IMG/VR virus record: IMGVR_UViG_3300035180_001847
Coordinates: 32,001-96,000 of that record
Direction: 5' to 3' (one strand)
Length of the DNA stretch: 64,000 bases
DNA from: a virus
The notes under the pieces are model-generated. The model was not told the DNA's origin. It saw nothing but the letters and a program-made list of their open reading frames with translations, and did no database searches. Positions within the stretch are counted from its first letter, which is position 1. Every line of letters begins with the position of its first letter. Below are positions 6,170 to 56,672 of this stretch, piece by piece. Both the position numbers and the translations under genes were made by a program.

Positions 6170-6324
6170 AAAAATAATATAACAAACGTCATAATTCATT
6201 AATAGCGCGGATTGAAACGGCGCAGATTGAAACGAAGCCTAAAACGTCACCGAACCAGTAAACCAGCGAAGTACCAGCGGAACCGGAAACGTCACCGAGT
6301 CACTTCCCTTATTGGGCGCGTGGA

Positions 6325-6476
6325 TTATGTGTATATGTGTTTAGTTATGTGTTTATGGTTATGTCGTTATGGTTGTGTTTATATCGTGGTTGTGTGTTTA
6401 TTTGTTTATGTTTATATGTATATATGTATATATATGTATATGTGTATATGTATATGTGTATATATGTGTGTGTTGT
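6325..6476. repeat. low-complexity TATG/TATATG/GTTTAT tract
   Basis: Directly visible degenerate tandem repeats. Confidence 0.85.
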
Positions 6477-6979
6477 AATGATAGACATGGCTTAATTTAT
6501 GGCTATTATGTTTTTTTATATGTTCGGGACACAATCGGCCGACTCCGATCACGATCCAAACCATAAGACTATATACTATATATTGTTAAGATAATATATA
6601 ATTATCTTAACATATGACGGGGTGGTTTTAATTTTTCGATGTTTTTTGGATGACCCCGTCGGTTAAAGCTCATTAACCCACACACAAAACCATCACCCCA
6701 CATATAAATCTAAATCAACCCTAAACAACTAAACCTAATTCTACATAACCTTAAACAAAACCAAGAGAAAAGAGCGAAGCGATGAATAACCGCCCCGAAG
6801 GGGCTAAAGTGACAAACAAGAACGAGTTATTTCTATAAATTATTAGATAAGTGGATTAAATTTGATTCTAACGATTAATTTTGCACAATTAAATAAGAAC
6901 AGCCCTTTTCATAGGGCTGTTTAAGGTAATGTAGAATTAGAAATGGGTTTTTAGAGGGAACGACAGGGAGTGAAGGACG

Positions 6980-7050: not shown

Positions 7051-8091
7051 TTATGGTAATCTTATCAGGTCATCGGTAAGGTATCTTTGATTGTATTCCC
7101 AATCCTTTGATGGGGGTGTAGGTTGTTCGTATTCATCTTTATCAATCATTTGCATAAATTTTTTTAATTCATTTTCATAATTCTCTTTCATTTTCAGATA
7201 CTTCTTTTTCGCATCTTTATTGACAAACGTGGCAAATTTTCCGTTCAGTGAATTTCTAAATTTTATTAATTCGTCGTATTCTTTTTTGTAAGAATCAAGA
7301 TTTTCTTCCAAATTATCTGTGCAGCCTATTAAAAATCCATATTGTAATTTATGAAGTCCCATTTGCTTTGCAACTTCTTCGTCCACGTTTCGATAAAATT
7401 CTGGTAGCCTTCCAATGAAAAATAATTTCCCAAGATTTTTTTGAGTAACATTTTCACTTAACATATTATTTAGGATTTTATTCTTTATGCTCAATATTTT
7501 ACTTTCCTCTTTATCCGTCGTGATTCTATCTTCTGTTCCATCGAATACCATGTGTCTTTTATCTACAAGTATGATGAAATTATCCTCTAAAACTTTTAGC
7601 GCGCTTTTAAGCATTTCTCTCATTTTAGCTTCTGTTCTAATATAAAATTCCTTCATATCTTTAATTTCAATATTTGTTGGACACTCACTGATATATGCTT
7701 CTATGGATTTTTTAGCTGGTAAGTATTTGCTATTTATCATTCCAGTTATTTCAAATATTTCTTTATGTGTAAGAAAAGTTCTCTTATCATCATTCACGAA
7801 AATTCTATCGTTTTTGTGTTCCGCCAGGTAATTTAACAATTGCACGGAAATATCCTCGACATAAATAGACCGATTTCCAAGTTTTCTATTATCAATTTTA
7901 GACAATTCATTTTTATATATTTTTTCAATTATAAGAGATTGACCATCTGATTTATTAAACTTGAAATATCTTTCAAGTTCTCTCATTTGATAAATCTTTG
8001 CTTTTCCAGTTTTTTCTTTAATATCAAGTAATACACAAAGTTCACGATAGTTTTTTATTATCTGACCCTCGGATATATTTCTAATGTTCAT
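7051..8091 (-). CDS. hypothetical basic DNA-binding (possibly replication-related) protein
   Basis: 346 aa from MNIRNI, overlapping the MTase stop; N-terminal IKNYRELCVLL...ELERYF winged-helix-like segment. Confidence 0.6.
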   Translation of the reverse strand: MNIRNISEGQIIKNYRELCVLLDIKEKTGKAKIYQMRELERYFKFNKSDGQSLIIEKIYKNELSKIDNRKLGNRSIYVEDISVQLLNYLAEHKNDRIFVNDDKRTFLTHKEIFEITGMINSKYLPAKKSIEAYISECPTNIEIKDMKEFYIRTEAKMREMLKSALKVLEDNFIILVDKRHMVFDGTEDRITTDKEESKILSIKNKILNNMLSENVTQKNLGKLFFIGRLPEFYRNVDEEVAKQMGLHKLQYGFLIGCTDNLEENLDSYKKEYDELIKFRNSLNGKFATFVNKDAKKKYLKMKENYENELKKFMQMIDKDEYEQPTPPSKDWEYNQRYLTDDLIRLP

Positions 8092-8833
8092 TGATTTGTT
8101 CCATCCTTTTCTTTGCAATTTCAAATATCTCTTCGTCCATTTCCATACCGATAAATTTACGCTTCAAATCTAAAGATGCTATTCCAGTGCTTCCACTGCC
8201 CATTGCATTATCTAAAACCACATCTCCTTCTAAAGTATAACTTTTTATTAAAAATTTTAACAATTCAACGGGCTTTTGAGATGTGTGTAACCTATTGTAA
8301 TTATCTACACACTTATATGTCAATAAATTGGTGGGATAACGGGTTGTATCCCCGCCCTGATAGTCTCTTTTATTTTCTCCCAAATAAGCTCCTCCGTAGG
8401 TTTTGCCCTTTGCCGAATTTGTGGGAATATGTCCATCTGTTTTTTGAGGATAATAAGAGCCATTGTAAAATATAACTATTTCTTCTATCTTACGCAATGG
8501 TTGTCTTTTGGCGTGGAGGAAATGAGTGGATTGATTTTTTTCCCAATACCAACAATATTTATAGTTTTTTCTATTGGATGTTATAAGGTCTGTGGTAAAA
8601 GGTTGTTGTCCAAATAGTGCAACCGTTCCTTTTGGAGATAAAATTCTTTTATATTGTTTCCAGAGAAGAGTTAGGTCTATTGACTTATCCCATTTTGAAG
8701 CAAGTTGTTTATAGGGAAGATCGGCAAGAATTAGGTTTATGGATTTGTCTGGAATATTTTTCATTAATTCTAAACAATCACCCCACCAAAGCTGCACATC
8801 TCTGTTTTCAATTTGATTATTTTCATCGTTCAT
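8081..8833 (-). CDS. DNA methyltransferase, beta class (N6A/N4C)
   Basis: ADLPY catalytic motif, HTSQKPVELL, VLDNAMGSGSTG SAM motif; start MNDENN after AAGGAG. Confidence 0.92.
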   Translation of the reverse strand: MNDENNQIENRDVQLWWGDCLELMKNIPDKSINLILADLPYKQLASKWDKSIDLTLLWKQYKRILSPKGTVALFGQQPFTTDLITSNRKNYKYCWYWEKNQSTHFLHAKRQPLRKIEEIVIFYNGSYYPQKTDGHIPTNSAKGKTYGGAYLGENKRDYQGGDTTRYPTNLLTYKCVDNYNRLHTSQKPVELLKFLIKSYTLEGDVVLDNAMGSGSTGIASLDLKRKFIGMEMDEEIFEIAKKRMEQINEH

Positions 8834-8907
8834 GTTTTTCTCCTTGTGAAATATTATTGAATATGAAATATCATCATATTTAATAATATATAAATATCTA
8901 AACTCAA

Positions 8908-8936
8908 ATTTTACCACCTCGCGTCAAACTTGTCAA
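8908..8936 (-). promoter_or_regulatory. sigma70-type promoter (leftward)
   Basis: Minus strand TTGACA-N17-TAAAAT with extended TG. Confidence 0.75.
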
Positions 8937-8956
8937 TATCCTTGATTTCAACACTC

Positions 8957-8985
8957 TTGACAAATAAAATCTTTTATGATATACT
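8957..8985 (+). promoter_or_regulatory. sigma70-type promoter (rightward) in front of the cassette array
   Basis: TTGACA-N17-TATACT with extended TG. Confidence 0.75.
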
Positions 8986-9023
8986 GTTAAAAATAGAATA
9001 TTGTATTTTTAGGAGTTTGGACA

Positions 9024-9075
9024 CGCCAACTGGAACTCATGCCCGTTTGTCAACGGCTAATTCAAACTGTGGGGT
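9024..9075 (+). mobile_element. degenerate, truncated attC-like site
   Basis: CGCCAAC...CGGCTAATTCAAACTGTGGGGT; the right end resembles the attC terminus GTTGGGT. Confidence 0.45.
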
Positions 9076-9114
9076 AACAAGTTATTACCCAAAAATAAAA
9101 TCATCGGAGAAATT

Positions 9115-9723
9115 ATGCATACACATACAGCAAAAAACCTTTTCAATCAGAATATTCAAAGCGCCAAAGATAGTCTTGCGCTTTATGATGCAATTGCTGC
9201 ACTCCAGCCAAGAGGCGTGGATATCAATTGGGTACTCAGGTCTGCCGTTGTATTTGCGGTTTCAGCACTTGATACATTTTTCCACGACAAAATCAAATAT
9301 CGTGTCGGGAGATTTGATTTTGGAAATATTCCGCCTGCTTTTGCAAAATTTGAAATTGAAATCAAGGATTTAATTTCGTGGGACAAATCAAGGAGAAAAG
9401 GCGATATTTTGCAAAATTGGGTCACTAATTATCTATCAACGCGTTCTCTACAATCACGAACGGAAATCGAAGAGTCTTTGAAAATGGCGGGAATTAACGC
9501 TGTTTGGGACACTATTGAACCAGATAAAGATAATAAAAATGCGCTTTTGCGAGACCTTGATCTTTTGGTCAAACGACGAAATCAAATTTCTCATGAAGGA
9601 GATAGAGTAACTTCTCGTAGAAGTGGAAAAACATTGCGCCCAATCACTAGACTAGAAGTAGAGAATTGGATAAAGTTTGTTGAATACATCGTTCTTAAAG
9701 TTGAAAATGCATTTCCTGGCTAG
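9115..9723 (+). CDS. HEPN-domain protein (RiboL-PSP-HEPN/MAE_28990-like), gene cassette
   Basis: LRSAVVFAVSALDTFFHD helix and RRNQISH (RxxxxH) motif. Confidence 0.8.
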   Translation: MHTHTAKNLFNQNIQSAKDSLALYDAIAALQPRGVDINWVLRSAVVFAVSALDTFFHDKIKYRVGRFDFGNIPPAFAKFEIEIKDLISWDKSRRKGDILQNWVTNYLSTRSLQSRTEIEESLKMAGINAVWDTIEPDKDNKNALLRDLDLLVKRRNQISHEGDRVTSRRSGKTLRPITRLEVENWIKFVEYIVLKVENAFPG

Positions 9724-9737
9724 ATTATGAAAAAATC

Positions 9738-9870
9738 ACCCAATAACGTATGCTCCCGACTAGCGGGAGTCTGGTTGCCATAAATAGGTTTTATCTATTC
9801 TTTGAGTTTAATTTCCTTTCGGGCATTTTCTCAGCCCCGTTCCACAAGCGGCTGACGCAAACCGCTAAGT
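9738..9870 (+). mobile_element. attC-like recombination site
   Basis: ACCCAATAACGTATGCTCCCGAC...AAGCGGCTGACGCAAACCGCTAAGT; termini match the RYYYAAC/GTTRRRY pattern with mismatches. Confidence 0.7.
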
Positions 9871-9890
9871 GGCTAGGGTAAAGGAGTCTA

Positions 9891-10442
9891 ATGGCAAGGA
9901 AAGAGTTTGTCGCTGGCAAAGCGGCTGGTAGGCAGGAAGGTTATACTTCAACACACTTCACGCCCGAAACGGCTGTAATTGATTTACTTCAATTCATCCC
10001 GTTTGAAAGTGGAGATATTGCACTTGATCCTTCTGCTGGCGTAAATAAAGTTTGGTTCAATAATTTTCCATGCAATAAAGATTACTGTGAAATTGATGAA
10101 GGTTTAGATTTCTTTGAGTATCCAAAACAAGTTGATTGGATCATAGGCAATCCGCCTTTCACTGATTTTATAAAGTTTCTTATGCACAGCCCCAGCATTG
10201 CAAGAAAAGGGTTTGCTTATCTTATCGGGCATAGTCGTCTCAATCAGGTTACACCGAAGCGATTGAGTATCTTGGAAGAAAAAGGTTTCTATTTATCAGG
10301 CATCCAAATCTGTACATTCAAAGCATGGTTTGGCAGGTATTACTTCCTGATTTTCACTCGCTCCAAGAATGAAGGTATCGGCTATTCACGAAAGAATTAT
10401 AGCCATGAAGTCTCTACGCCGCAGAACAATGTGTGCTGTTAA
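9891..10442 (+). CDS. small DNA adenine methyltransferase, gene cassette
   Basis: HFTPE, LDPSAG SAM motif, IIGNPPF catalytic motif; AAGGAG RBS. Confidence 0.85.
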   Translation: MARKEFVAGKAAGRQEGYTSTHFTPETAVIDLLQFIPFESGDIALDPSAGVNKVWFNNFPCNKDYCEIDEGLDFFEYPKQVDWIIGNPPFTDFIKFLMHSPSIARKGFAYLIGHSRLNQVTPKRLSILEEKGFYLSGIQICTFKAWFGRYYFLIFTRSKNEGIGYSRKNYSHEVSTPQNNVCC

Positions 10443-10506
10443 AATTTGAATAATTTTACGGTTTTATCTCGTCCCGCTCATATGCAGATAGCGCAAACCG
10501 TTGGCC
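10421..10506 (+). mobile_element. attC-like site (internally shortened)
   Basis: GCAGAACAATGTGTGC...TTATCTCGTCCCGCTCA...GCAGATAGCGCAAACCGTTGGCC. Confidence 0.7.
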
Positions 10507-10705
10507 ATTTTCTAGCACAATAAGGTAAAAAATTATCTCGCCCGTGATGGGATTCACATTGTTTAAAAAATAGAGAATAAAATAACTTATTATAAACTTT
10601 CCACCCCTGTATGAAACAATTATGATTGCATTTGATATCAATGATTATATTTAATATCAATGCAGATAAATTTAAAGAGTAAAAAGGATTTTATAAAGTG
10701 AGATA

Positions 10706-11062
10706 ATGTTGGATTTTTTGAAACAACAAATTGGTTTTTGGCAATGTGTTTTATTTATAGTTGGAATTATTTGTGTTTATGGCTGGTGGTTGTGGAGAAT
10801 ATATAAACCATATAAATATAAAGAACCAAAACAAAATCAACACTCCAAAGATTTGGAAAGATTGGGACAGATTAATGATGAAATTTATAATTTAACGTGT
10901 GATAGGGATTGGGAAAAAATTCAAGAACTTCGCAGGGAGCGCATAAAAATATTAAGCAAGCCTGAAAATTATAATCACTATGCCATTCAACGGGATTTGA
11001 TTTGGCTTAGTATTCAAAAAATTGGTGGTAAATACTTCTATAATTCAGATGCCAATTTGTAA
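10706..11062 (+). CDS. hypothetical membrane protein
   Basis: N-terminal hydrophobic helix. Confidence 0.6.
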   Translation: MLDFLKQQIGFWQCVLFIVGIICVYGWWLWRIYKPYKYKEPKQNQHSKDLERLGQINDEIYNLTCDRDWEKIQELRRERIKILSKPENYNHYAIQRDLIWLSIQKIGGKYFYNSDANL

Positions 11063-11290
11063 TTTGACGGGTGAGAATTAATGTTTTTGTTAAATTATAA
11101 ATATGGAATATTTATTAATATGTAATATGTATTAAGAAGAGCAATAGCGGAGATAAAAGATAAAAAAATTTTTTATTAATGGTGGTTGAAGAAAAAAAGA
11201 GAGAGAAAGAAAGAAAAAAATAATCAACTGGAAGTATGAATGAGTTGATATAATTTATGTAGATAAGGATACTAACAACATAGAAAATAT

Positions 11291-11560
11291 ATGAATATTC
11301 GCAATTTTTATTTATTTGTAACAAGTCATAAAAATATTTCTTTGGATTGTGTAAACCCAACTAATCAGCCTGATTTAGATATAATGGATTTAGATGATAA
11401 TTTGAGTTTGGAGGAATTGAATAATATGGATATGGATGATGTTGAAGATGAAGATAAATATTTGGATTGGGAAAGTTTTTTTGAAGTAAATAAACACGGC
11501 GAGGGGAGATGGTCAGAAATGTCTTATAATAGATATTGTCAAGGAATTTTGGATCAATAA
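11291..11560 (+). CDS. acidic hypothetical protein
   Basis: 89-aa D/E-rich ORF upstream of the RNA polymerase. Confidence 0.45.
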   Translation: MNIRNFYLFVTSHKNISLDCVNPTNQPDLDIMDLDDNLSLEELNNMDMDDVEDEDKYLDWESFFEVNKHGEGRWSEMSYNRYCQGILDQ

Positions 11561-11626
11561 AAAAGGTGTTTATATTGAAAACTTTTTTTAGATAAAATAA
11601 TTTTTTGTGAAAGGAAATATTGAGCC

Positions 11627-14359
11627 TTGTCCCGAAAAATACAATCCTTTTATGTATTAAAATTAGAAAGCGAAAAACTAAAAAAACACGGATATAAAAT
11701 TAAAATAGATTTGAACGAGGCAAGAAAAAACAATGAAGTGGTATCATTGGCAAATAGTCAAATGATACGGACGATACAAGAAGTTATAAAATCAAGTTAT
11801 TCTCAGAAAAAATTAGATAGATTAGTAAAAAGAAAAAAAGCATTAGGAAATCAAAAAAATAAATCGATTTATCGAAAAGAATTGAGCGATATTCAAAATG
11901 AAATAGATAAGTTATTGTTTATTCCTGAATTGATAGTAATTCATTTTAATCATACATCACATTATAAAACAATTATTAAAAAGGGTCTTTTTATAAATGA
12001 CAAAGAATATGTTAGATTAATGACGGGAGCGGGTCACGCTCGTCGTAATTCCAGTATCTTCATTGAAAAAAATATTTGGATGAATGTCAATGAAATATTT
12101 GAAAATGGAAGAAACAAAAACGTTCCTCTAGTGTATAGCAAGTATAATGCCTATTATGGACTTTATGCTTCGGCAACTCAACCCGTCTCATTTCCTCGTA
12201 TAGCAGTTGTGCCAGACCTTGAATTGGAATTTATAAGAACATTTGATTTTGTTGAAGAAGTCGAACAGGAAGATGATTTGGTTTATGAAAAAATAATGCC
12301 CGTCAAGCAAAATATTTTTGATGGTATGGGATTGATAAGCATTGAATTTGCGAAACAATGGCAGTCAGACCTTGAACTTGATTATCTTCCATCTGGATTT
12401 ATATTTAGAGGGGGATTTTTCAAAGGAATGCTTGCAACATTTGATATAAAAATGTTTGCCAAAGAAAATAATTCTTTTGAAATAAAAGATGTTTGGGGAA
12501 ATATTCATAATGTAAAAGATATTGATATTATTGCAACCCAATCACAATTCAAATTATGGATGTGCTATAATTCAATTGATGACTACCGTGAAAACTGTGT
12601 AAAAAACAATATTGGATTTGGGGTAAGCAGAGTTTCTCCAAAAAAACAAAAAGATTTTTTTTATTCATCATATCAATATTTACAGGTATTGAATGAAGAT
12701 AAAGTCAATATTGAAAAATTATGTGAACCAACCTTAAATTATTTCAAAGATGTTTCTTCTGATGATGCTAATAAGGCAATTTTATATTTATTGGGCGATA
12801 AGGATTATCAAGATTTAGAAAAATTATTCGAGCAAATTGATAATAACGTGTTGAAAGCGCTCATGATAAATAAAAATGTCATAAAAGATAATCATATAAA
12901 AAACCATATTTTCAAGACTATTAATAAAAAGATACGAAATTCCTTCATGGGGAATCTTATTCTTGATGGATGTTATCAAATGAATATTGCTGATCCTGTG
13001 GCTTTCATGCAACACGCTCTGGGTCTTTTGGTAACGGGATTGCTAAAAGATAAAGAATATTATTCTAAATACTGGTCATCAAGAAAAATAAATAAAATCG
13101 CAACGGGTAGAAGTCCTTTAACTTGGAGAAGTGAATTAAATGTCTTAAATCTTATTGACAATAATGATACTGAGAAATGGTACAAATATTTGAGTGACGG
13201 GATTATAACCAATATTTATGGTGATGACAACTATCGTTGGGCGGATTCCGATATGGATGGTGATTTGATTTTTTCTACATCTAATGAATACTTGATAAAT
13301 GGGGCATTTGGCGGAAATCCAATCACATATAATCGTGACTCTGGAAATAAGGATATTATAAATACCGATGAATTATATAAAAGCGATATTGATAGTTATG
13401 GTTCGCGCATTGGTGTTTTAACCAATTATTCAACAACATCGTATTCAATGCTTTCCATGTTTGGTAACAAGGACAGTGAAGAATATAAAACCATTATAAA
13501 TAGATTGAAAATAACAAGAAAAAATCAGGGTCAGGAAATTGATAAGGCGAAATTGGGCGGATTTATAAAACCAATTCCTGAATGGGCTAAGTATAGGCAC
13601 ATAAAAAATTCCATGACCGAAGAAGAAAAAAATAAAATTAGGCTTCACAATAGACTTCTTCTTGATCGTCGTCCTTTGTGGATGATTTATCTTTATCCTC
13701 ACAAAATGAATGAATTTCGTCGTTTCAATAAGATATATGAAAACTATGTTCAAAGTAAAATGGGATTTTCTCTGGAAACATTGTTGAATAAAAAAGATAG
13801 AAACAAGAAGGAAAACGACATTTATAATAGTTATGTAAGATATTCTCCATTTATTGTTGAAGATAAGTCTATTATGATGAAGATTTATCAATATATGATT
13901 CAATCTGTTCGTGAACATAAACTTAAGATGAAAAACGATTCATTGACATTTGATTATACCATATATCTAAATAAATCCATCCCTAAAAACTCATATAAAC
14001 TGCAACAGATGGAAAATTTACTAAAAGAATATAAGTCCGCTAAAAAGAATTTATCTGTTACCAATAATTTTGAAAACAAAGAACAAGTCTTTTCTATTTT
14101 GAGAAATAAGGCTGAATTTAATATAAGTAATAATATATCAGAATTAACAAATTTGGCTGTTGAGGTTTGTTATGAAAAAGGAACTGTAAATTCAAGGCAA
14201 TTTGTTTTTGATCTGTTTGGCGATGGTATTATTCAGAATCTCTTGACAAATAATGGAAATAAGATTATGATACCAGTTCTTACTGAACCATCTGGAGATT
14301 TGGAATTTCTTGGAAAACACTATTCATTGAAAGAGGTTAAAATAAATAATGTCGTATAA
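11627..14359 (+). CDS. yonO: YonO-like single-subunit two-barrel RNA polymerase
   Basis: 910 aa; FDGMGLIS, RGGFFKGML, GRSP and ADSDMDGD (DxDGD) motifs; position upstream of late genes as in SPbeta. Confidence 0.9.
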   Translation: MSRKIQSFYVLKLESEKLKKHGYKIKIDLNEARKNNEVVSLANSQMIRTIQEVIKSSYSQKKLDRLVKRKKALGNQKNKSIYRKELSDIQNEIDKLLFIPELIVIHFNHTSHYKTIIKKGLFINDKEYVRLMTGAGHARRNSSIFIEKNIWMNVNEIFENGRNKNVPLVYSKYNAYYGLYASATQPVSFPRIAVVPDLELEFIRTFDFVEEVEQEDDLVYEKIMPVKQNIFDGMGLISIEFAKQWQSDLELDYLPSGFIFRGGFFKGMLATFDIKMFAKENNSFEIKDVWGNIHNVKDIDIIATQSQFKLWMCYNSIDDYRENCVKNNIGFGVSRVSPKKQKDFFYSSYQYLQVLNEDKVNIEKLCEPTLNYFKDVSSDDANKAILYLLGDKDYQDLEKLFEQIDNNVLKALMINKNVIKDNHIKNHIFKTINKKIRNSFMGNLILDGCYQMNIADPVAFMQHALGLLVTGLLKDKEYYSKYWSSRKINKIATGRSPLTWRSELNVLNLIDNNDTEKWYKYLSDGIITNIYGDDNYRWADSDMDGDLIFSTSNEYLINGAFGGNPITYNRDSGNKDIINTDELYKSDIDSYGSRIGVLTNYSTTSYSMLSMFGNKDSEEYKTIINRLKITRKNQGQEIDKAKLGGFIKPIPEWAKYRHIKNSMTEEEKNKIRLHNRLLLDRRPLWMIYLYPHKMNEFRRFNKIYENYVQSKMGFSLETLLNKKDRNKKENDIYNSYVRYSPFIVEDKSIMMKIYQYMIQSVREHKLKMKNDSLTFDYTIYLNKSIPKNSYKLQQMENLLKEYKSAKKNLSVTNNFENKEQVFSILRNKAEFNISNNISELTNLAVEVCYEKGTVNSRQFVFDLFGDGIIQNLLTNNGNKIMIPVLTEPSGDLEFLGKHYSLKEVKINNVV

Positions 14360-20403: not shown

Positions 20404-21405
20404 ATGGGTAAAATAAGGTCTCGCAGATTGAATCAACAAGAACAAGACGAAATCATATATTGTCGAAAATGTACTTTACAAAAACCGCCTTCTGAATTTT
20501 ATGATAGTCCAGATAAATTACTGGATACGAATGGTAAATTGAGCGTGTGTAAATCTTGCGTTAATGATATTTTCAATGGATTTATGATTTCAACAAATTC
20601 TTCTCTATCCGAATCTATAAATAAAACATGCAAGATACTCAATATTTATTATTCTTCTAAATCTGTGGAATCATTGAAAGCCCACATTGAAACTTTGGGT
20701 GATAAAGCACTAGAAAAAAATTTATTTGGAATGTATAAAATTCATTTGGCAAGATTTTTAAGTTTAAATCAAGGTATCAATGGAACGTATGAGTTTGATG
20801 GCTCTTATGTTCGGCCAAGTGATGAAGATGCGTTGGTAAATGAAAATTCCGAATATAAAAAAGAGTTATATAATTTTTGGGGTACTGGTTTGGAATGGGA
20901 AGATTATCAATTTCTTGAAAATGAATTGGCACAATGGAAAACCACCCATAAGCATGATACTCGTTCAGAATTAATTTTCTTGAGAGAAATAGCCTTTATT
21001 TTATTGGATATAAAAAAGGCAAGGGAAAGTGGTCAATCTACTTCGACATTGATGAAACAATTTCAAGAAACTGTGAAAACCGCTGGACTTGATCCTGCAA
21101 ACGCATCCGCAATTACGGGGGCGCAAGAGACATTTGGTAATTGGATAAAAGAAATTGAAACTAAAACTCCTGCTGAATGGTATGAGAATGATAAATTATT
21201 TAAAGATGTTGATAATTTATCTAAATATTGGGAAAATTATGTTACTCGTCCTTTAAAAAATTTTATTACGGGTTCAAGAGATTTCAATATTTCTGAGGCA
21301 TCTGAAGAAGGCGAAGATTCTCCCGAATTAGATTTATCATCTGCATCATCAGATGGTGATTATGGAATAGATATTATCGGAGATTCAAATGACGGCGATA
21401 ACTAA
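20404..21405 (+). CDS. probable terminase small subunit (YonG-like)
   Basis: CRKC...CKSC zinc finger; immediately upstream of TerL; start MGKIRS after GAGGAGG. Confidence 0.65.
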   Translation: MGKIRSRRLNQQEQDEIIYCRKCTLQKPPSEFYDSPDKLLDTNGKLSVCKSCVNDIFNGFMISTNSSLSESINKTCKILNIYYSSKSVESLKAHIETLGDKALEKNLFGMYKIHLARFLSLNQGINGTYEFDGSYVRPSDEDALVNENSEYKKELYNFWGTGLEWEDYQFLENELAQWKTTHKHDTRSELIFLREIAFILLDIKKARESGQSTSTLMKQFQETVKTAGLDPANASAITGAQETFGNWIKEIETKTPAEWYENDKLFKDVDNLSKYWENYVTRPLKNFITGSRDFNISEASEEGEDSPELDLSSASSDGDYGIDIIGDSNDGDN

Positions 21406-23542
21406 TTTCAGAAATAAGCGGGAAATAAATAAATCTAAATCAAGACAAAATAACTTGTTTTTAGCTCCAAAGAAAATGACGAGAGCAGAAGATATAATTG
21501 GTTCAAGAAGAGACAGATTAATTGATTGGATAACTTTTTACAGAAGAAATATGCACAGATTCGTGCAACATTATTTAGGAATAAAACTGCATCCATATCA
21601 GATTATATGGATTTATATGATGTCCATTTCGGATTCTTTTGTGGCAATATGCAGTCGCGCAGCAGCTAAAACTTGGTTATTGGGGGTTTTTAGTGTTGCA
21701 AAAGCCATATTGTATCCAGGTTCTGAAATTGTGGTTGTAGCTTTAACAAAAGAACAGGCTGGGAAGATTATTACCGAAAAAATAAAACCGCTTGCGAATC
21801 GCTATCCTATGGTTGCAAGAGAAATATCTGAAATTAGAACGAGTTTAAATTTATATGAATGTCAATTTCATAATGGGAGTGTGATTAGAGTTGTTCCAAG
21901 CAGAGATTCGGCTCGTGGTGGAAGGGCATCCATGCTTATCATGGAAGAGTTTAGATTGATTTCAAAAGATATTTTGGATTCCGTTATTCGACCTTATTTA
22001 GTTGTTAGGCAAGCACCCTATTTAAAAATAGATAAATATAGTCATTTAATTGAAGAACCAAGAGAAGTATTTATTTCTTCTGCTTATCATAAATCAGAAT
22101 GGTGGTACAAAGAAAGTTTATCAACGATAAAAGCGATGTTGAAAGGCGATAACGCTAATTTTTTTGCAACCGATTTAATGGTGGCCATTAAGCATGGTAT
22201 AAAAACCGTGAAGCAAATTAAACGTGAAAAAACCAAAATGGATGAAGTTACCTATCAAGAAGAATATTTGAATATTCCATTTGGTGAAAGCGGAGATTCG
22301 TATTATAAATTAGGTATGTTTACGAAACTTAGGGATTTAAAAAAGGGTTTTTATCCGCAAAAGGCTGATACATATAACGCTAAAAAAAATCCTTATGCTA
22401 TTTTAAAAATTGATGATGAAATTAGATTAGTGTCGGTGGATGTTGCAACTCGCGCCGGAAAAACAAATGACTTAACGATTATAAGTTGCATTAGACTTTT
22501 ACCAACATCTCATGGTTATCATAGAGAAGTTTGTTATATTGAAAGTTTTTCTGGAAAAAATACAATTGAGCAAGGTTTACGAATCAAACAAATTTTCTAT
22601 GATTTTGAAGGGGATAATATCGTACTCGATATTCAAAATGCAGGGATGAAAATAGTTGTCCTCCCCATTAGTGATTTTGGGGTAATTAATTTGCGGAATT
22701 AAGCGGGAAGCCTGAAATGGTAATCCGAACCGAAGATTGAATTTAAAATTTCAATCAGGGGCAGAGCATAGTCTTGAAACTATCATTATATTGAAAATAT
22801 TATTACGATAGATATATAATAGACCAAGAGGCCGCAATATCTTTTTGAGAAAATGGTATTTGTGGTGAAAAATGATGATTCCAATTAATCATTAAAATTT
22901 CTTAAAAAGATAAAAAGATATGCCGAACTAATAGGAAACGAACTATTAGAACATGCTGATAAAAAACAGTGTGGATAACAAATTTGTTCTATTTTAGACC
23001 AGTTGGGCGTTGTCACAAAAGACGATGAGCGCGGAATTGAATATCCTGCTATGACGGTTATGCAACATGAATCGATTGAAGAAAAAGTTTATCTTGAATT
23101 AGTGGCAAGAACGCTTGGCGCAAATGCCCTTCCAATTATTTATCCTATATCCGCCACTGGAAATCTTAATAGCAATATTGCTGTTGATTTTAGAGATAAA
23201 TTGAAGAAAAAAATGTTTTCTTTTCTTTTGGATGAGACTGCTGCTGAAGATTTTTTGTTGAAACATAATAAAGAAGTCATGGTTGCAAATGATGAACTTG
23301 CTTTAAAGGCTTTTTTTATGAATCCTTATATTCAAACAACATTGCTCATCAATGAATGTATAAATTTATCGATGAGTATTATTTCAGGTAATATCAAATT
23401 AAAAGAACGATCTGGTGGTCGTAAAGATAGATATACATCCGTGAGTTATGCAAATTATTTTGCTAGTTTTTTGGATAAGGATATAATGAGAGAAGAAGGC
23501 AATCATGATGATGATTTATTGAATAGCGTCGTGGTTTTATAG
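21389..23542 (+). CDS. terL: terminase large subunit, spliced: join(21389..22647,22987..23542), 604 aa
   Basis: Walker A SRAAAKT, Walker B LIMEEFR, nuclease VDVA and KDRYTS; removing the intron gives DIQNAGISILDQL in frame. Confidence 0.9.
22648..22986 (+). ncRNA. group I self-splicing intron, no homing endonuclease
   Basis: P1 GGGAU/GUCCU with U.G at the 5' splice site; P10 AAAATAG/CTATTTT; P3 TTGCGG/CCGCAA; P7 GCATA/TATGC; terminal G; restores the frame. Confidence 0.9.
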
Positions 23543-23596
23543 TGAATATGATAATAAATATAATAAAATTTAGTTGAAGGAGGTAAAATACTAAAT

Positions 23597-25201
23597 ATGG
23601 CTAGAACAAAAAAGGCTTCATCTCCTTCTAAGAAAGATGAAAAAAATGATGATGGGTTAATTTCGGCTGAAGATGTGTGGGATGTTTTGAAATTTGCGTC
23701 GAATTTATATGGTGGTGTGATTCCTCAATATGGAATTTCCGGTGTTTATAATCCAATGTTGACGAATGACATTATGAAAAATATGACGCTTCATCCACAG
23801 GCTGTAACATCCGATCAGGTTGACAAGGCTTTAGCAGACCCGAAGAACAATGAGCAAAATTTAATTGGATACAGCGAATTCTTCGAGTTGTCAAATATGC
23901 TTTATAAGCGGATTTTATATTATTTATCTGGCATGTTATCATTTGATTTGACATATGTTTGTATAAATGCAGAACCAGATGATTATAAGACAACAAGATA
24001 TAAAGGTGATTTACAAATAGTTCAAGATTTTCTTGATAAATTTGATGTAAAAAAAGAATTTAAAACCATTCTTCGTCAAATGCTCAGACAAGAGGCCTAT
24101 TTTGGAATTCTGCGTGATGATGGAGAAAAATACGTCATGCAAGAAATTGATGAGAGCTACTGTTTAATTACGGGAAGATTTGATTACGGGCTTTTGTTTG
24201 ATTATAATGCCATTCAAATGCTCAATCCTGGTTTTGACATCGATTTTTATCCAGAAATTTTCAAGACATTTTATGATAAAATTTTTAGAGATGGAAATAG
24301 CGCAAATTTATATAATCCCGCTGCATCTGTTATGAATAGAGATAAAAATTGGGTGTACTGGATACAGACGAGTCCCGAACAAGGGTTTGCTTGTTTTAAA
24401 TTCAATGAAGAAATTGGTACTAGAGTTCCTTTCTTTGCGCCTCTGTTTCCAGATGTGGTCAATGGAAATCTTATCCGCAAACTTCAAACAAATTCTTATA
24501 TAAGTGAAGCAAGTAAAATACTTGTTGGAAAGATTCCAATGATAAATAATCCTAAGGGTGCTGGTGTACGCGATAGTTTGGCTATCTCTCCAGAACTACT
24601 TGGCAAGTTCTTGGCATTATTGAAAGCGGGATTGGCAGAAACAGTTCGCGTCGCTGGAAGTCCGCTGGAGAATATGCAAGGAGTAGAATTTACAAGCAGG
24701 GATTATTACCAGCAATATTTAAAAACAACTGGTTCTGCATCTGGAATAGATTCGAGATTGATTTTTACCATAGATAAGCCTACTCAAATGGAATCGCAGC
24801 TTAGTACAAATGTTGATGAGTATTTAATTGGACACGTTTATAATTATTTCAATGACTTTCTTAATTATCATATAAATAAAAGAACTAAAAAATATAAATT
24901 TAGATTCTTTTTTGAAGGTACGAATTTATTTACAAATCGGGCGGAAAGATTGGATACTCAATTGAAATTGATGCCCTTTGGAATAGTTAATTATCAAAAA
25001 ATAGCTTCTGCCATTGGTCAATTACCCCATCATTTCCTGAAGCAGTTGCAGGAAACAAGGGCGATTGGATTTGTGGATATGTTGACACCAATTCAAACTT
25101 CTGCCACATTGAGCAGTAATTATGGCGGTGCGCCTAAAAAATCGGCTGGTGATTTATCGGATTCTGGGGCGCAAGCAAGAGATGATTCTGGGAATTATTA
25201 A
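23597..25201 (+). CDS. portal protein (YonE-like)
   Basis: 534 aa after TerL; C-terminal PIQTSATLS..GGAPKK pattern. Confidence 0.8.
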   Translation: MARTKKASSPSKKDEKNDDGLISAEDVWDVLKFASNLYGGVIPQYGISGVYNPMLTNDIMKNMTLHPQAVTSDQVDKALADPKNNEQNLIGYSEFFELSNMLYKRILYYLSGMLSFDLTYVCINAEPDDYKTTRYKGDLQIVQDFLDKFDVKKEFKTILRQMLRQEAYFGILRDDGEKYVMQEIDESYCLITGRFDYGLLFDYNAIQMLNPGFDIDFYPEIFKTFYDKIFRDGNSANLYNPAASVMNRDKNWVYWIQTSPEQGFACFKFNEEIGTRVPFFAPLFPDVVNGNLIRKLQTNSYISEASKILVGKIPMINNPKGAGVRDSLAISPELLGKFLALLKAGLAETVRVAGSPLENMQGVEFTSRDYYQQYLKTTGSASGIDSRLIFTIDKPTQMESQLSTNVDEYLIGHVYNYFNDFLNYHINKRTKKYKFRFFFEGTNLFTNRAERLDTQLKLMPFGIVNYQKIASAIGQLPHHFLKQLQETRAIGFVDMLTPIQTSATLSSNYGGAPKKSAGDLSDSGAQARDDSGNY

Positions 25202-28992: not shown

Positions 28993-30138
28993 ATGAAAAT
29001 CTCGAATAAAATTTTAACTTTTGCGGGTGGGGAAGATAAACTTGCTCCTTATTTGATGTTTGCTGATTACTGGAATCATTATCGTGCAGAACATAAAAAG
29101 GGCGATGATGCCAAAAACATTGATTACCAAAAATTTGATAAGAATGGTAATGTAATTAGCTTCTCCCAAAAAGAAGATGAAATGAACAGGGTGCTTCGTG
29201 ATGAAATTATCAGACAAGCATTCAATGGAATCAATCCAACTGAGAATAGTGTTCTTCCTTTGGAGGCATGGGCGACCCATCCTACTTTAAGTTGGGCGAC
29301 ATTCTCGGTTGTTTCTGCAATGATCGATATGGTGTTGCCGGATACAATAATTGAGTCGATTGGTTCTTACACTGATGTTAAAAGTGGAGATTGGGGAGAT
29401 TCTTTCTCTTTTGATATTACTCCCCGTGATTTGTTTGTTGTGTCAAAGCAGGGGCGCGATCGCAGAACAACGGAACTTCGCAAACAATATAAAGGTCAGG
29501 TAACTGTTGTTCCTGAACCTCGTCAATTGTCTGTAAGTGTTTCATTGTATAGAGTTTTGGCTGGCAAAGAATCTTTGGCGGAATTTGTTGCAAAAGTTGT
29601 TCGTTCACTTGAGTCCCAAATGACGGTGGATGTATACAACACATTTGCTACTGCTATGGCCGCTCTCCCAACTTCGCCTGCCAATACGGCCTTGCAGGTT
29701 ACCGGCTATTCTCAGCAATCTCTGGTTGCTTTGGCTGAACGTGTTGGCGCTTGGAATGGCGGAAATCAACCAATTGTGATGGGAACGCGCCTGGCTCTTG
29801 CCAAAATTGTTCCTGATAATGCTGGCTGGCGCTATGATACTGAAAGTGATTATGTCAAGATTGGTTATATTCGCACAATCAGTGGATATGACATCATGAT
29901 GTTGCCACAAGTTGCGGCATGGAACACTCCTTTTGCAACTGTTATTGACGATTCTAAATTGTGGATTGTGTCACCTTCTGCTTCAAAACTCGTGAAATTG
30001 TGTTTGGAAGGTTCAACTTTGAGTAATGTTAGTACAACTTTCCAAAATGCCAATTTAACTCAAAGTGCTTCAATCACTAAATCTTATGGAACTGCTATTG
30101 CAACTTCCGCAATTGCTGGTGTTGTTGCTTTGCAATAA
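28993..30138 (+). CDS. major capsid protein
   Basis: 381 aa, strong RBS, followed by a terminator; synteny. Confidence 0.8.
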   Translation: MKISNKILTFAGGEDKLAPYLMFADYWNHYRAEHKKGDDAKNIDYQKFDKNGNVISFSQKEDEMNRVLRDEIIRQAFNGINPTENSVLPLEAWATHPTLSWATFSVVSAMIDMVLPDTIIESIGSYTDVKSGDWGDSFSFDITPRDLFVVSKQGRDRRTTELRKQYKGQVTVVPEPRQLSVSVSLYRVLAGKESLAEFVAKVVRSLESQMTVDVYNTFATAMAALPTSPANTALQVTGYSQQSLVALAERVGAWNGGNQPIVMGTRLALAKIVPDNAGWRYDTESDYVKIGYIRTISGYDIMMLPQVAAWNTPFATVIDDSKLWIVSPSASKLVKLCLEGSTLSNVSTTFQNANLTQSASITKSYGTAIATSAIAGVVALQ

Positions 30139-30146
30139 AAATTAAA

Positions 30147-30178
30147 CATGGGATGGAAAATAAAATTTCCATCCCATG
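30147..30178 (+). terminator. hairpin terminator after the major capsid gene
   Basis: CATGGGATGGAAA...TTTCCATCCCATG. Confidence 0.7.
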
Positions 30179-30207
30179 AACATAAAAAATGAAAGAGGAA
30201 AAATAAA

Positions 30208-30873
30208 ATGAGTGAGGAAAAAACAACTAAATTAAAATCAGGAAGATTGAATTCCAAAAAATCTCAAAGAGAAATTGATTTAGAAAAAAAAATTCTTAAA
30301 ATGCAGGAGCAACTGGAAGCAATAAAAGAGCCTCAAACTGAAGGCTCATCTATTTCAGAAGAAGAAAGAATTGACCCAACTGAATATATAAAGGTTATGT
30401 CATTGACTAATCATCTTTTAAATCTTACAACCCAGCCGAGAGGCGGGGGTAAAATATATTCATTTTCAAAGGGATTTGGTGAAGTAAAAAGAATTCCATA
30501 TTCTCATCTTGCTGATATTATTGAAAATCATCAATCTTTTGTTGAAGCTGGGAATTTTTATATTATGGATAAACGTGTTATATCTCAGCATGGTTTGGAT
30601 GATGCTTATGAAAAAATTCTTGATAAAGATAAGATTGAACAGATATTCAATGGAAATAAGAATGATGCTTTAAATCTTTTTAAAATGGCTAATCCTAAAC
30701 AGCAAGGAATGATAATTAATATGCTTATTGAAAAATTACGGGATGATCCAGAGTTTGATTTAAATGTTATTGAAATTATTTCAAAATATTCCAAAGTCAA
30801 TCTTCAAGAAAAAGCAATTTTCGCAAGAGAATTTATGGAAGATGAAGAGAAAGATGAACAAGAAGAAAAATAA
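30208..30873 (+). CDS. hypothetical virion-module protein (YonA-like position)
   Basis: 221-aa ORF; synteny. Confidence 0.7.
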   Translation: MSEEKTTKLKSGRLNSKKSQREIDLEKKILKMQEQLEAIKEPQTEGSSISEEERIDPTEYIKVMSLTNHLLNLTTQPRGGGKIYSFSKGFGEVKRIPYSHLADIIENHQSFVEAGNFYIMDKRVISQHGLDDAYEKILDKDKIEQIFNGNKNDALNLFKMANPKQQGMIINMLIEKLRDDPEFDLNVIEIISKYSKVNLQEKAIFAREFMEDEEKDEQEEK

Positions 30874-55587: not shown

Positions 55588-55626
55588 GCCCAACCGATAG
55601 CCAGTTGGCCGCACGCTTTGTTAGTC
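55588..55626 (-). mobile_element. minimal attC-like site
   Basis: Minus strand GACTAACAAAGCGTGCGGCCAACTGGCTATCGGTTGGGC. Confidence 0.7.
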
Positions 55627-55815
55627 ACCGCTCATGCTGTCAAACACATTCAATAGTGTTTCATCAAACGTGCCAACACCTCTCATTTCTTCGAGGCGTA
55701 CGGCGCATTGAAAGAAATCATTTTCTTTGAGACAATCTTTGGCAGATGTCAACAATGTTTCGATAACCTTGATGCGTCGCTGCAACTCTTGTTTGCAAAC
55801 ATCTTCTGTTTTCAT
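55621..55815 (-). CDS. hypothetical protein, gene cassette
   Basis: 64 aa, AAGGAG RBS; stop codon TAA lies within the GACTAAC inverse core. Confidence 0.7.
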   Translation of the reverse strand: MKTEDVCKQELQRRIKVIETLLTSAKDCLKENDFFQCAVRLEEMRGVGTFDETLLNVFDSMSGD

Positions 55816-55839
55816 AATTCTCCTTTTAGCAAGATGGGG

Positions 55840-55964
55840 GACTAACGGCTTGCGTCAGTTGCGGGGCGATTTGCAAAGCCCGCAAGTATCAAAATTTACA
55901 CTGCAAAAGGAATTACATTTTTTGCAGCACCAGTAATCCCCATCAACTGCGCGCCTTGTTAAGT
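55840..55964 (-). mobile_element. attC-like site overlapped by coding sequence
   Basis: Minus strand ACTTAACAAGGCGCGCAGTTGATGGGG...GCCCCGCAACTGACGCAAGCCGTTAGTC. Confidence 0.8.
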
Positions 55965-56103
55965 GCGCCAAAGTTTCGCCAAGTTCCTTATAAAGCAACC
56001 CTGCTTCTTCTCGCGTAAGTATATAATCTTTCATACCCTCAAGGGGACGAAGGCAAACAAGATCGGAAACACCTTTATACGTTGAAATCATTTTGTTTTG
56101 CAT
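55855..56103 (-). CDS. hypothetical cassette protein with C-terminal zinc finger
   Basis: 82 aa, AGGAG RBS; WCCKKC...CGLCKSPR. Confidence 0.7.
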   Translation of the reverse strand: MQNKMISTYKGVSDLVCLRPLEGMKDYILTREEAGLLYKELGETLAHLTRRAVDGDYWCCKKCNSFCSVNFDTCGLCKSPRN

Positions 56104-56109
56104 AGTAGC

Positions 56110-56204
56110 TCCTAACTATGTTTTGAGCGGTGAAATCACCGCCTAAATACCCAAATTAATCTTAATTATCTTCATTAGCCAATCGTATGAACGGCTTGCT
56201 CTGG
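56110..56204 (-). mobile_element. degenerate attC-like site
   Basis: Ends ATAGTTAGGA on the minus strand; the left end CCAGAGCAAGCCGTTCA is eroded. Confidence 0.35.
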
Positions 56205-56387
56205 ATAGAACTTGACTTCACCACCCCAAGCATACCAAAGATCAGTTACGTGTTCAACGATTTCAGACGCTTTATTCTCAAGTTCATCAGGAATAACGAG
56301 AGTTGGATTATCGCCGTCCCACCTGATTATTGCGCCTTCATACTCTTTTGCAAGAGCCTTTTCAAGAAGTGCCTTCCAGTTTTTCAT
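56175..56387 (-). CDS. hypothetical protein, gene cassette
   Basis: 70 aa, AAGGAG RBS, directly after an attC GTTGGGC core. Confidence 0.7.
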   Translation of the reverse strand: MKNWKALLEKALAKEYEGAIIRWDGDNPTLVIPDELENKASEIVEHVTDLWYAWGGEVKFYPEQAVHTIG

Positions 56388-56407
56388 GAGTCTCCTTTTC
56401 CTAGATT

Positions 56408-56539
56408 GCCCAACAGACTTGCGTTAATGGTTTTGTCGCTCATAGTTCGCGCAAATTAAATGAATGCATTGTTCGCAGGGTTCGCCATAGACATATTGTT
56501 TGGTATCGGTGGCGAAATCCCCTGCGTGCTTTGTTAAGT
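56408..56539 (-). mobile_element. attC-like site overlapped by coding sequence
   Basis: Minus strand ACTTAACAAAGCACGCAGG...TAACGCAAGTCTGTTGGGC. Confidence 0.7.
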
Positions 56540-56672
56540 GTACTTTATGTTGATTATGAGCGTCTCTGACACCGAACGCCCAGCATCGAAAGCCACAAAT
56601 TGAGCAGGTGTAATATTTTGTCTTTTTACCGCGATGGGTAATTTCAAATTTAGCACGATGATGTTTTTTCAT
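56424..56672 (-). CDS. hypothetical Cys/His-rich cassette protein
   Basis: 82 aa; CSICG...H..H and CEQC motifs. Confidence 0.6.
   Translation of the reverse strand: MKKHHRAKFEITHRGKKTKYYTCSICGFRCWAFGVRDAHNQHKVHLTKHAGDFATDTKQYVYGEPCEQCIHLICANYERQNH

Follow-up and report, generated by a model that had tools for sequence, protein, structure and literature searches.

Probable integron cassettes of an Anaerolineae attC family in a tailed phage: a partly decayed HEPN-methylase array behind a phage promoter

Here, we describe a small gene array in the genome of an uncultivated virus, found in a window of 64,000 nucleotides that spans bases 32001-96000 of the 105,455-bp IMG/VR virus record IMGVR_UViG_3300035180_001847. 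Within an island (~9000 to 10560) whose GC content of 0.37-0.46 compares with ~0.28 in its flanks, a HEPN gene and a methylase-like gene follow a promoter, and each ends in a recombination site (attC1 and attC2, respectively) of a family that belongs to the chromosomal integrons of Anaerolineae-class bacteria. The two units are, in all likelihood, integron cassettes with their attCs. The source is a tailed phage genome: the window encodes portal, tape-measure, DNA polymerase and helicase/exonuclease proteins, the ends of the record are 127-nt direct terminal repeats, and the overall GC content is 34%. Taken as a whole, we consider it probable that the integron integrase (IntI) of a host, acting in trans, inserted the cassettes into the phage, where they are read from its promoter, and that the array has since decayed.

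An Anaerolineae attC family in bacterial and phage DNA

When the island DNA was searched against 301 genomes from the class of one Anaerolineae metagenome-assembled genome (MAG), BLAST aligned window positions 10461-10505 at 80-85% identity to short repeats of five Anaerolineae-class genomes. These repeats are ~130 nt long, open with ...YAAC and then AAAGCGTGCA, close with ACGCAAACC and then GTTRG, and recur every ~0.8-0.9 kb on the same contigs. When aligned, 13 copies share a fold in which an unpaired spacer lies between an R box bearing AAC/GTT and an L box with bulges; compensatory changes are seen at 7 of the 21 pairs. Genome G240 has intI genes (451-459 bits, cut-off 265) at a distance of ~850 nt from two of the copies and in divergent orientation; an intI is also present in G127 and in G001, and the scores across such genomes range over 451-472 bits. 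Because of their array spacing, the R/L fold with its compensatory changes and the adjoining intI genes, the repeats qualify, judged by sequence, as bona fide integron attCs.

A covariance model built from these 13 bacterial attCs only, and from no phage sites, returns attC1 and attC2 at coordinates identical to those of the initial annotation. The scores are 45.5 bits for attC1 (E 2e-9, model positions 1-129) and 15.6 bits for attC2 (E 0.055), E-values that are rough given a short calibration. Using nhmmer, attC1 is matched at full length (E 5.7e-11) and attC2 in its 3' half only (E 4e-7), its 3' arm being near-identical to the family. Since a model made from bacterial attCs alone recovers both sites, and BLAST, covariance model and nhmmer agree, the attribution of the attC ends to an Anaerolineae repeat family in that annotation was correct; the end strings it quoted are also present, GTGGGGTAA at 9069-9077 and TCACCCAAT at 9736-9744. 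At 133 nt, attC1 falls within the 57-141 nt typical of attCs. Moreover, both sites lie, as expected of an attC, at the 3' end of a promoterless open reading frame (ORF) on the same strand, attC1 beginning 15 nt past the HEPN stop codon and attC2 22 nt before the methylase stop codon.

Across the 105-kb genome, the same covariance model identifies 15-17 attCs of the Anaerolineae family in five clusters, one of which is the HEPN-methylase array (Table 1). Scores reach 57.7 bits in the three clusters outside the window, where the R' box of several sites has GCT in place of GTT, like that of attC1, and many phage copies keep both AAC/GTT cores. In an alignment of 17 phage copies from all clusters, which was fitted to the model and whose pair counts are to be read with this in mind, 83% of cells pair vs 74% in shuffles (0 of 500 as high); pairing falls to 21-37% when the partners are slid, and 15 of the 21 pairs have changed on both sides. 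Additionally, the genome has two copies, 91% identical, of a 347-nt unit that comprises an attC, a small gene and the collapsed end of an attC and whose limits coincide with attC borders.

The genome encodes no IntI, in agreement with the initial description of an integrase-less platform. Its two tyrosine recombinases score 37-42 bits on TIGR02249 (cut-off 265) and lack the IntI-specific insertion that is present in the Anaerolineae IntIs. The clusters are thus, by definition, attC-site clusters without an integron integrase (CALINs); at the array, two attCs stand 551 nt apart without IntI, which makes it a CALIN and not a complete integron. Beyond this phage, a stringent 23-base gapped pattern of the attC family matches 59 IMG/VR viral-contig stretches (L176-L234), which have a GC content of 0.39-0.57, are not close relatives of the source phage and are classed as viral by IMG/VR alone. 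Some of these (L189, L206, L217 and L220) contain 3-4 copies of the pattern each.

Table 1. Coordinates of the array, its surroundings and related features of the phage genome (positions refer to the window unless marked genome)
Feature	Position	Strand	Basis or remarks
N6_N4 methylase gene	8081-8836	-	PF01555, 96 bits
Divergent promoter-like sequence, TTGACA-17-TAAAAT	8908-8936	-	mirror image; faces N6_N4 methylase gene
Sigma-70-like promoter, TTGACA-17-TATACT	8957-8985	+	11/12 matches; TG-extended -10; in AT-rich phage backbone
Claimed attC remnant, ends GTGGGGT	9024-9076	+	by-eye likeness to attC 3' arms only
HEPN gene, 202 aa	9115-9723	+	Pfam RiboL-PSP-HEPN; GGAG ribosome-binding site
attC1, 133 nt, full-length family homologue	9738-9870	+	covariance model and nhmmer
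Methylase-like gene, 183 aa	9891-10442	+	motifs I and IV; AAGGAG ribosome-binding site
attC2, 86 nt	10421-10506	+	covariance model; nhmmer 3' arm
Island tail, GC-richer	10507-10557	+	short attC-arm-like strings, by eye alone; no model match
Xer-like tyrosine recombinase, 334 aa	37876-38880	+	SAM-like N-terminal and Phage_integrase domains
Mini-attC, 39 nt	55588-55626	-	same family
attC	55840-55964	-	34.5 bits; intact cores; folds as full hairpin
attC	56408-56477	-	same family
attC cluster	genome 1.3-2.2 kb (1260-2163)	-	covariance model
Xer-like tyrosine recombinase, 278 aa	genome 7477-8310	-	SAM-like N-terminal and Phage_integrase domains
attC cluster	genome 21.4-25.1 kb (21377-25103)	-	covariance model
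Duplicated 347-nt units	genome 22105-22451, 23114-23460		neighbors differ between copies
attC cluster	genome 29.6-30.2 kb (29614-30220)	-	covariance model
attC cluster (HEPN-methylase array)	genome 41.7-42.5 kb	+	covariance model
attC cluster	genome 87.6-88.5 kb (window 55588-56477)	-	covariance model

Genes, promoter and present state of the array

The HEPN assignment stands on a Pfam profile score of 54.2 bits (PF18735, RiboL-PSP-HEPN; cut-off 28.4) and on an Rx4H motif, RNQISH (R155-N-Q-I-S-H160), that is invariant across 23 homologues; a sequence search of solved structures and PADLOC returned no match for the protein. Its homologues are bacterial and dispersed across many phyla. Relatives occur within canonical cassette arrays of Leptospira (L007), of a Spirochaetota MAG (L008), where intI is on the same contig, and of a member of the Chloroflexia (L003), all with different attC types, so that one gene family is associated with several types of attC. 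The attCs measure ~190-208 nt in the Leptospira array and 114-116 nt in that of the Spirochaetota MAG. A 90%-identical HEPN (P0002) is encoded on another contig. A metagenome scan with the single HEPN protein as query gave no matches, and a second scan with the HEPN alignment gave relatives of at most 66% identity only. The codon composition of the gene has drifted toward phage values, with a GC content at third codon positions (GC3) of 0.29; a phage backbone gene has 0.25 and an Anaerolineae HEPN homologue 0.49. An 85-aa frame ~1.7 kb upstream of that Anaerolineae homologue (L002 6134-6316, corresponding to 94422-94604 of contig C226 in G001) encodes an IntI-like C-terminal fragment scoring 56 bits, possibly a decayed integrase.

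The gene after attC1, initially called a methyltransferase, is methylase-like by motif and by family: S-adenosylmethionine motif I (D46-P-S-A-G50) and catalytic motif IV (N87-P-P-F90, within GNPPF) are conserved, and the protein matches PHROG 799 at 7.9e-17. Weaker matches link it to DpnA and to PADLOC MTase_II, the search of solved-structure sequences gave motif-level matches only, and no Pfam family was matched at E 0.1; ~90 residues follow motif IV. The gene runs into attC2, whose R''/L'' arm supplies its final codons. A 96%-identical methylase (P0098) is found on another contig, and close homologues on other contigs (P0099) read through the attC2 arm as ...PPNIACSG..., which is what an intact consensus of the attC family would be expected to encode.

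Neither gene is generally tied to this type of attC, as a model of the type (R1) matches 1 of 50 HEPN loci (L101) and 0 of the 29 other viral methylase loci. The methylase family is mainly phage and lacks such attCs at those 29 loci, so that the gene may have been transferred in either direction. We also considered the HEPN and methylase genes as a co-evolving pair and rejected this, since they co-occur in no fetched locus; they are accordingly handled as independent cassettes. Furthermore, in blastn comparisons with every HEPN and methylase locus, none of the three intergenic stretches showed non-coding similarity.

The strong promoter that had been noted ahead of the cassettes is present, with 11 of 12 matches, and presumably drives both promoterless genes. 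It is part of the ordinary AT-rich phage backbone and one half of a divergent pair, the -35 boxes of both promoters falling in the arms of an imperfect inverted repeat (8930-8945 / 8948-8963). Promoter-like sites are frequent in such AT-rich DNA (25 found vs 16.4 +/- 4.5 in shuffles). Its description as Pc-like is apt for its position just upstream of the cassettes and fails for homology, the promoter being an analogue of Pc and not a homologue. No T-tract terminators are predicted within the island, an Rfam scan of 8000-12000 gave chance matches only, and the AT-rich backbone starts again at 10558.

Between promoter and HEPN gene, an attC remnant had been proposed at 9024-9075. Neither the covariance model nor three nhmmer profiles match it, even when 8880-9120 is searched alone, and pairwise comparisons with other attC 3' arms are marginal (p ~0.03-0.06 against shuffles). 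Without a model match and with marginal permutation tests, we rejected it as an established attC. The stretch (9024-9076) is conserved upstream of the 90%-identical HEPN on the other contig, where it is read through as the N-terminal part of P0002.

Both established sites have decayed. In attC1, R'' reads ACCCAAT (AAT for AAC) and R' reads GCTAAGT (GCT for GTT), so that both core triplets are changed; 14 of the 21 model pairs are kept and 7 are non-standard. In attC2, R'' (GCAGAAC) and R' (GTTGGCC) retain AAC and GTT, with complementarity between the two boxes at only 4 of 7 positions, an interior of 53 nt vs ~96 in the model and a weak L box (GTGT/GCGC plus CTG/CAG). Our own strict generic detector, which calls for an R''/R' complementarity of at least 6/7 plus an L box, found no site in the island, and its window-wide counts equal those of shuffles; it does recover the Spirochaetota array. 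The loss of cores and pairs in attC1, the interior deletion in attC2 and the GC3 drift of the HEPN gene indicate an old array that is largely fixed and not actively excisable. Given the decayed attC1 and attC2, cassette-by-cassette excision is unlikely here today, and the initial view of the HEPN unit as excisable is not upheld, the cores of attC1 being mutated and its bottom strand lacking an R/L-box hairpin as its minimum-energy structure.

Four metagenome runs from four studies (sediment and microbial mat) contain the stretch in short contigs. Error-free contigs bridge both island junctions: those of X1 cover 8956-9947 and 10341-10585, those of X3 8973-9418 and 10435-10623, and neither set shows differences. 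In other contigs, agreement with the reference ends at 8985, just past the -10 box, or at 10661. Still others break within the 3' arm of attC1 (at 9835 and 9842/9846), with different sequences next to the HEPN unit and the methylase unit. Joints between 10419 and 10558, at which attC2 and 51 nt are skipped or replaced, occur in contigs of two other samples, and one strain joins 8985 to 9091, skipping or replacing the 9024-9076 stretch. Strains thus differ at this locus, which breaks at the promoter and in the attC arms, in line with the initial reading.

Origin of the cassettes and alternative explanations

The array is best described as a HEPN RNase cassette (predicted at 9070-9864) followed by an adenine-methylase-like cassette (predicted at 9865-10500), each ending in an attC. 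We propose that the host lineage of the phage supplied them from its integron pool and that, most likely, a host integron integrase acting in trans recombined attC with a non-canonical target (attC x attG). Insertions downstream of a phage promoter would have been retained because the cassettes carry no promoter of their own, and the same process would have filled at least four other sites in the genome. Both genes would then be transcribed from the promoter at 8957-8985, the methylase may shield phage DNA from host restriction, and the HEPN RNase may serve host takeover or the exclusion of competitors. At present, the attC arms continue to be breakpoints between strains. Loading by host IntI is made plausible by the phage-wide pattern and not by the HEPN-methylase array itself. 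Of the initial capture scenario, Anaerolineae-family cassettes behind a phage promoter are therefore retained, and the upstream remnant and excisability are not.

Several observations weigh against insertion by host IntI. None of the data captured an IntI-mediated event. attC1 lacks AAC and GTT, and the minimum-energy fold of its bottom strand consists of local hairpins only, with no R/L-box hairpin; that of attC2 uses another stem, ACGGTTT/AAACCGT, instead of the R/L hairpin. The island's left border is only loosely placed, so that no clean G|TT junction can be drawn there, and the phage GC content of 34% vs 50-62% at the Anaerolineae loci makes the host assignment indirect. For the methylase gene, transfer may have run from phages into integrons instead of the other way. 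The roughness of the covariance-model E-values and the fitting of the 17-copy alignment to the model count on the same side. Finally, the weakly attC-like stretch at 9024-9076 and the attC-like scraps past attC2 would fit the capture of a larger chunk of array better than a precise insertion of cassettes.

Such passive capture, in which one piece of array entered once, like any moron, by illegitimate or homologous recombination, its attCs inert and IntI never acting on the phage, is the main rival, and we regard it as unlikely. The degenerate cores of attC1, the truncation of attC2, a possible partial attC upstream and attC-like scraps downstream all speak for it, and illegitimate recombination at GTTRRRY-like motifs has also been proposed by Qi et al. 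(PMC9892861). However, a one-off event sits poorly with five separate clusters of a single attC family, with several attCs elsewhere that have intact AAC/GTT and fold as full hairpins, with a duplicated cassette whose ends lie at attC borders, and with strain breakpoints inside attC arms. It is improbable that, in place of host IntI, a phage-encoded Xer-like tyrosine recombinase moves the cassettes. IntI is a relative of Xer, both phage enzymes combine a SAM-like N-terminal domain with a catalytic domain, and their best NCBIfam match is the XerA or 'integron integrase' model at 105-123 bits. Yet this is below every family cut-off, their scores on the IntI model and the missing IntI-specific segment place them outside IntI, and neither gene adjoins a cassette cluster.

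That the repeats are phage terminators or regulatory hairpins merely resembling attCs has very little probability. Small local hairpins do dominate the folding of 9730-9875, and the strict generic detector was empty in the island, yet no T-tract terminators are predicted there and, although no Rfam family is matched either, the homology extends over the full length (E ~1e-10) to elements flanking intI in bacterial cassette arrays. An assembly chimera, with bacterial integron reads mis-joined to a phage contig, would account for the jump in composition at the island borders and is the least credible of all: contigs of X1 and X3 span the two junctions without differences, although the best-matching run may be the window's source sample, and the record carries direct terminal repeats. 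These bridging contigs rule the chimera out.

A more far-reaching version of insertion by host IntI holds that the phage lineage is a working integrase-less platform at which, in the course of infection, host IntI repeatedly loads and removes cassettes from the host's own chromosomal integron at several sites downstream of phage promoters; we put this forward tentatively and think it doubtful. If true, the phage would build its accessory genome from the integron pool of an uncultivated Chloroflexota host and return genes to that pool, with the methylase family as a possible case of flow from phages to integrons, and dozens of other viral contigs could be assigned to hosts by the shared attC family.

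Relation to known systems and further observations

Integron cassettes are usually regarded as traffic between bacterial chromosomes and plasmids. Their carriage by phages has been described only recently and looked rare, with 3 complete integrons, one In0 and 17 CALINs in 10,705 phage genomes (Qi et al. 2023, PMC9892861). Methylase cassettes were among the CALIN cargo in that study, 5 of 6 tested phage attCs recombined with attI1, and bacterial IntI was proposed to load and unload phage cassettes in trans (PMC9892861). The present case shares with those CALINs the attC-bounded, co-oriented small cassettes, the methylase cargo and a phage without IntI. It differs in that they are single clusters of at least two attCs in isolate phages, whereas the 15-17 attCs of this uncultivated phage fall into five clusters; in its one attC family of the Anaerolineae class, a class that we did not notice among the taxa named there; and in the partial decay of the HEPN-methylase array.

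In bacterial chromosomes, IntI also inserts cassettes at GWT genome sites (attG), where they rely on promoters already in place and where the attC can be lost (bioRxiv 10.1101/2022.09.11.507474). The phage resembles the resulting CALINs and single attC sites lacking integron integrases (SALINs) in its scattered short clusters far from an integrase, in the resident promoter upstream and in attCs later lost or 'domesticated' by slippage. In contrast to that route, the target here would be a phage genome, and its junctions are too coarsely placed to display a G|WT signature. With the sedentary chromosomal integrons of Anaerolineae (G240, G127 and G001), the phage shares the attC family, its architecture of R box, spacer and bulged L box, and a distance between cassettes of ~0.8-0.9 kb; those arrays adjoin intI, whereas the phage has none, and several of its attCs are shorter (39-107 nt) or core-mutated. 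Phage morons and orphan phage methyltransferases, too, are accessory genes that follow a phage promoter and are foreign in composition, with methylases as anti-restriction cargo, but unlike the island they are not bounded by integron recombination sites.

Integrase-less cassette clusters in phages are thus already known, and the present case fits both the phage CALINs and attG insertion. What stands out is the load of five clusters, the single attC family that can be traced to a taxon and its 59 IMG/VR matches. The five clusters and the occurrence of the attC type in at least 59 IMG/VR stretches suggest that, in some environmental lineages, phages regularly draw on and carry the integron gene pool. 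As a sequence marker, the attC family connects uncultivated phages with hosts, and this genome supplies both intact and decayed sites for testing the action of IntI on phage DNA, while the HEPN-methylase array chiefly illustrates how cassettes become fixed.

Among the other clusters, the one within the window forms a second island (55588-56672, minus strand) with a GC content of 0.40-0.46 and four small ORFs of 64-82 aa, none with a Pfam match; the ORF at 55855-56103 extends ~110 nt into its own attC. A 90-nt segment of this island (window 56074-56163, genome 88074-88163) is common to genome 18061-18149. Upstream of the array, window 6212-6600 is a low-complexity TG/TA-rich stretch, open in several frames and giving rise to Cys/Tyr/Val/Met-rich pseudo-ORFs, which is probably a microsatellite-like repeat. 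No relatives of a 910-aa neighboring protein were found in IMG/VR. In a blastn search against 50,697 phage records, the sole match was the N6_N4 methylase gene that faces away from the array, and homologues of this methylase occur in several of the attC-bearing viral loci (L218, L184 and L192).

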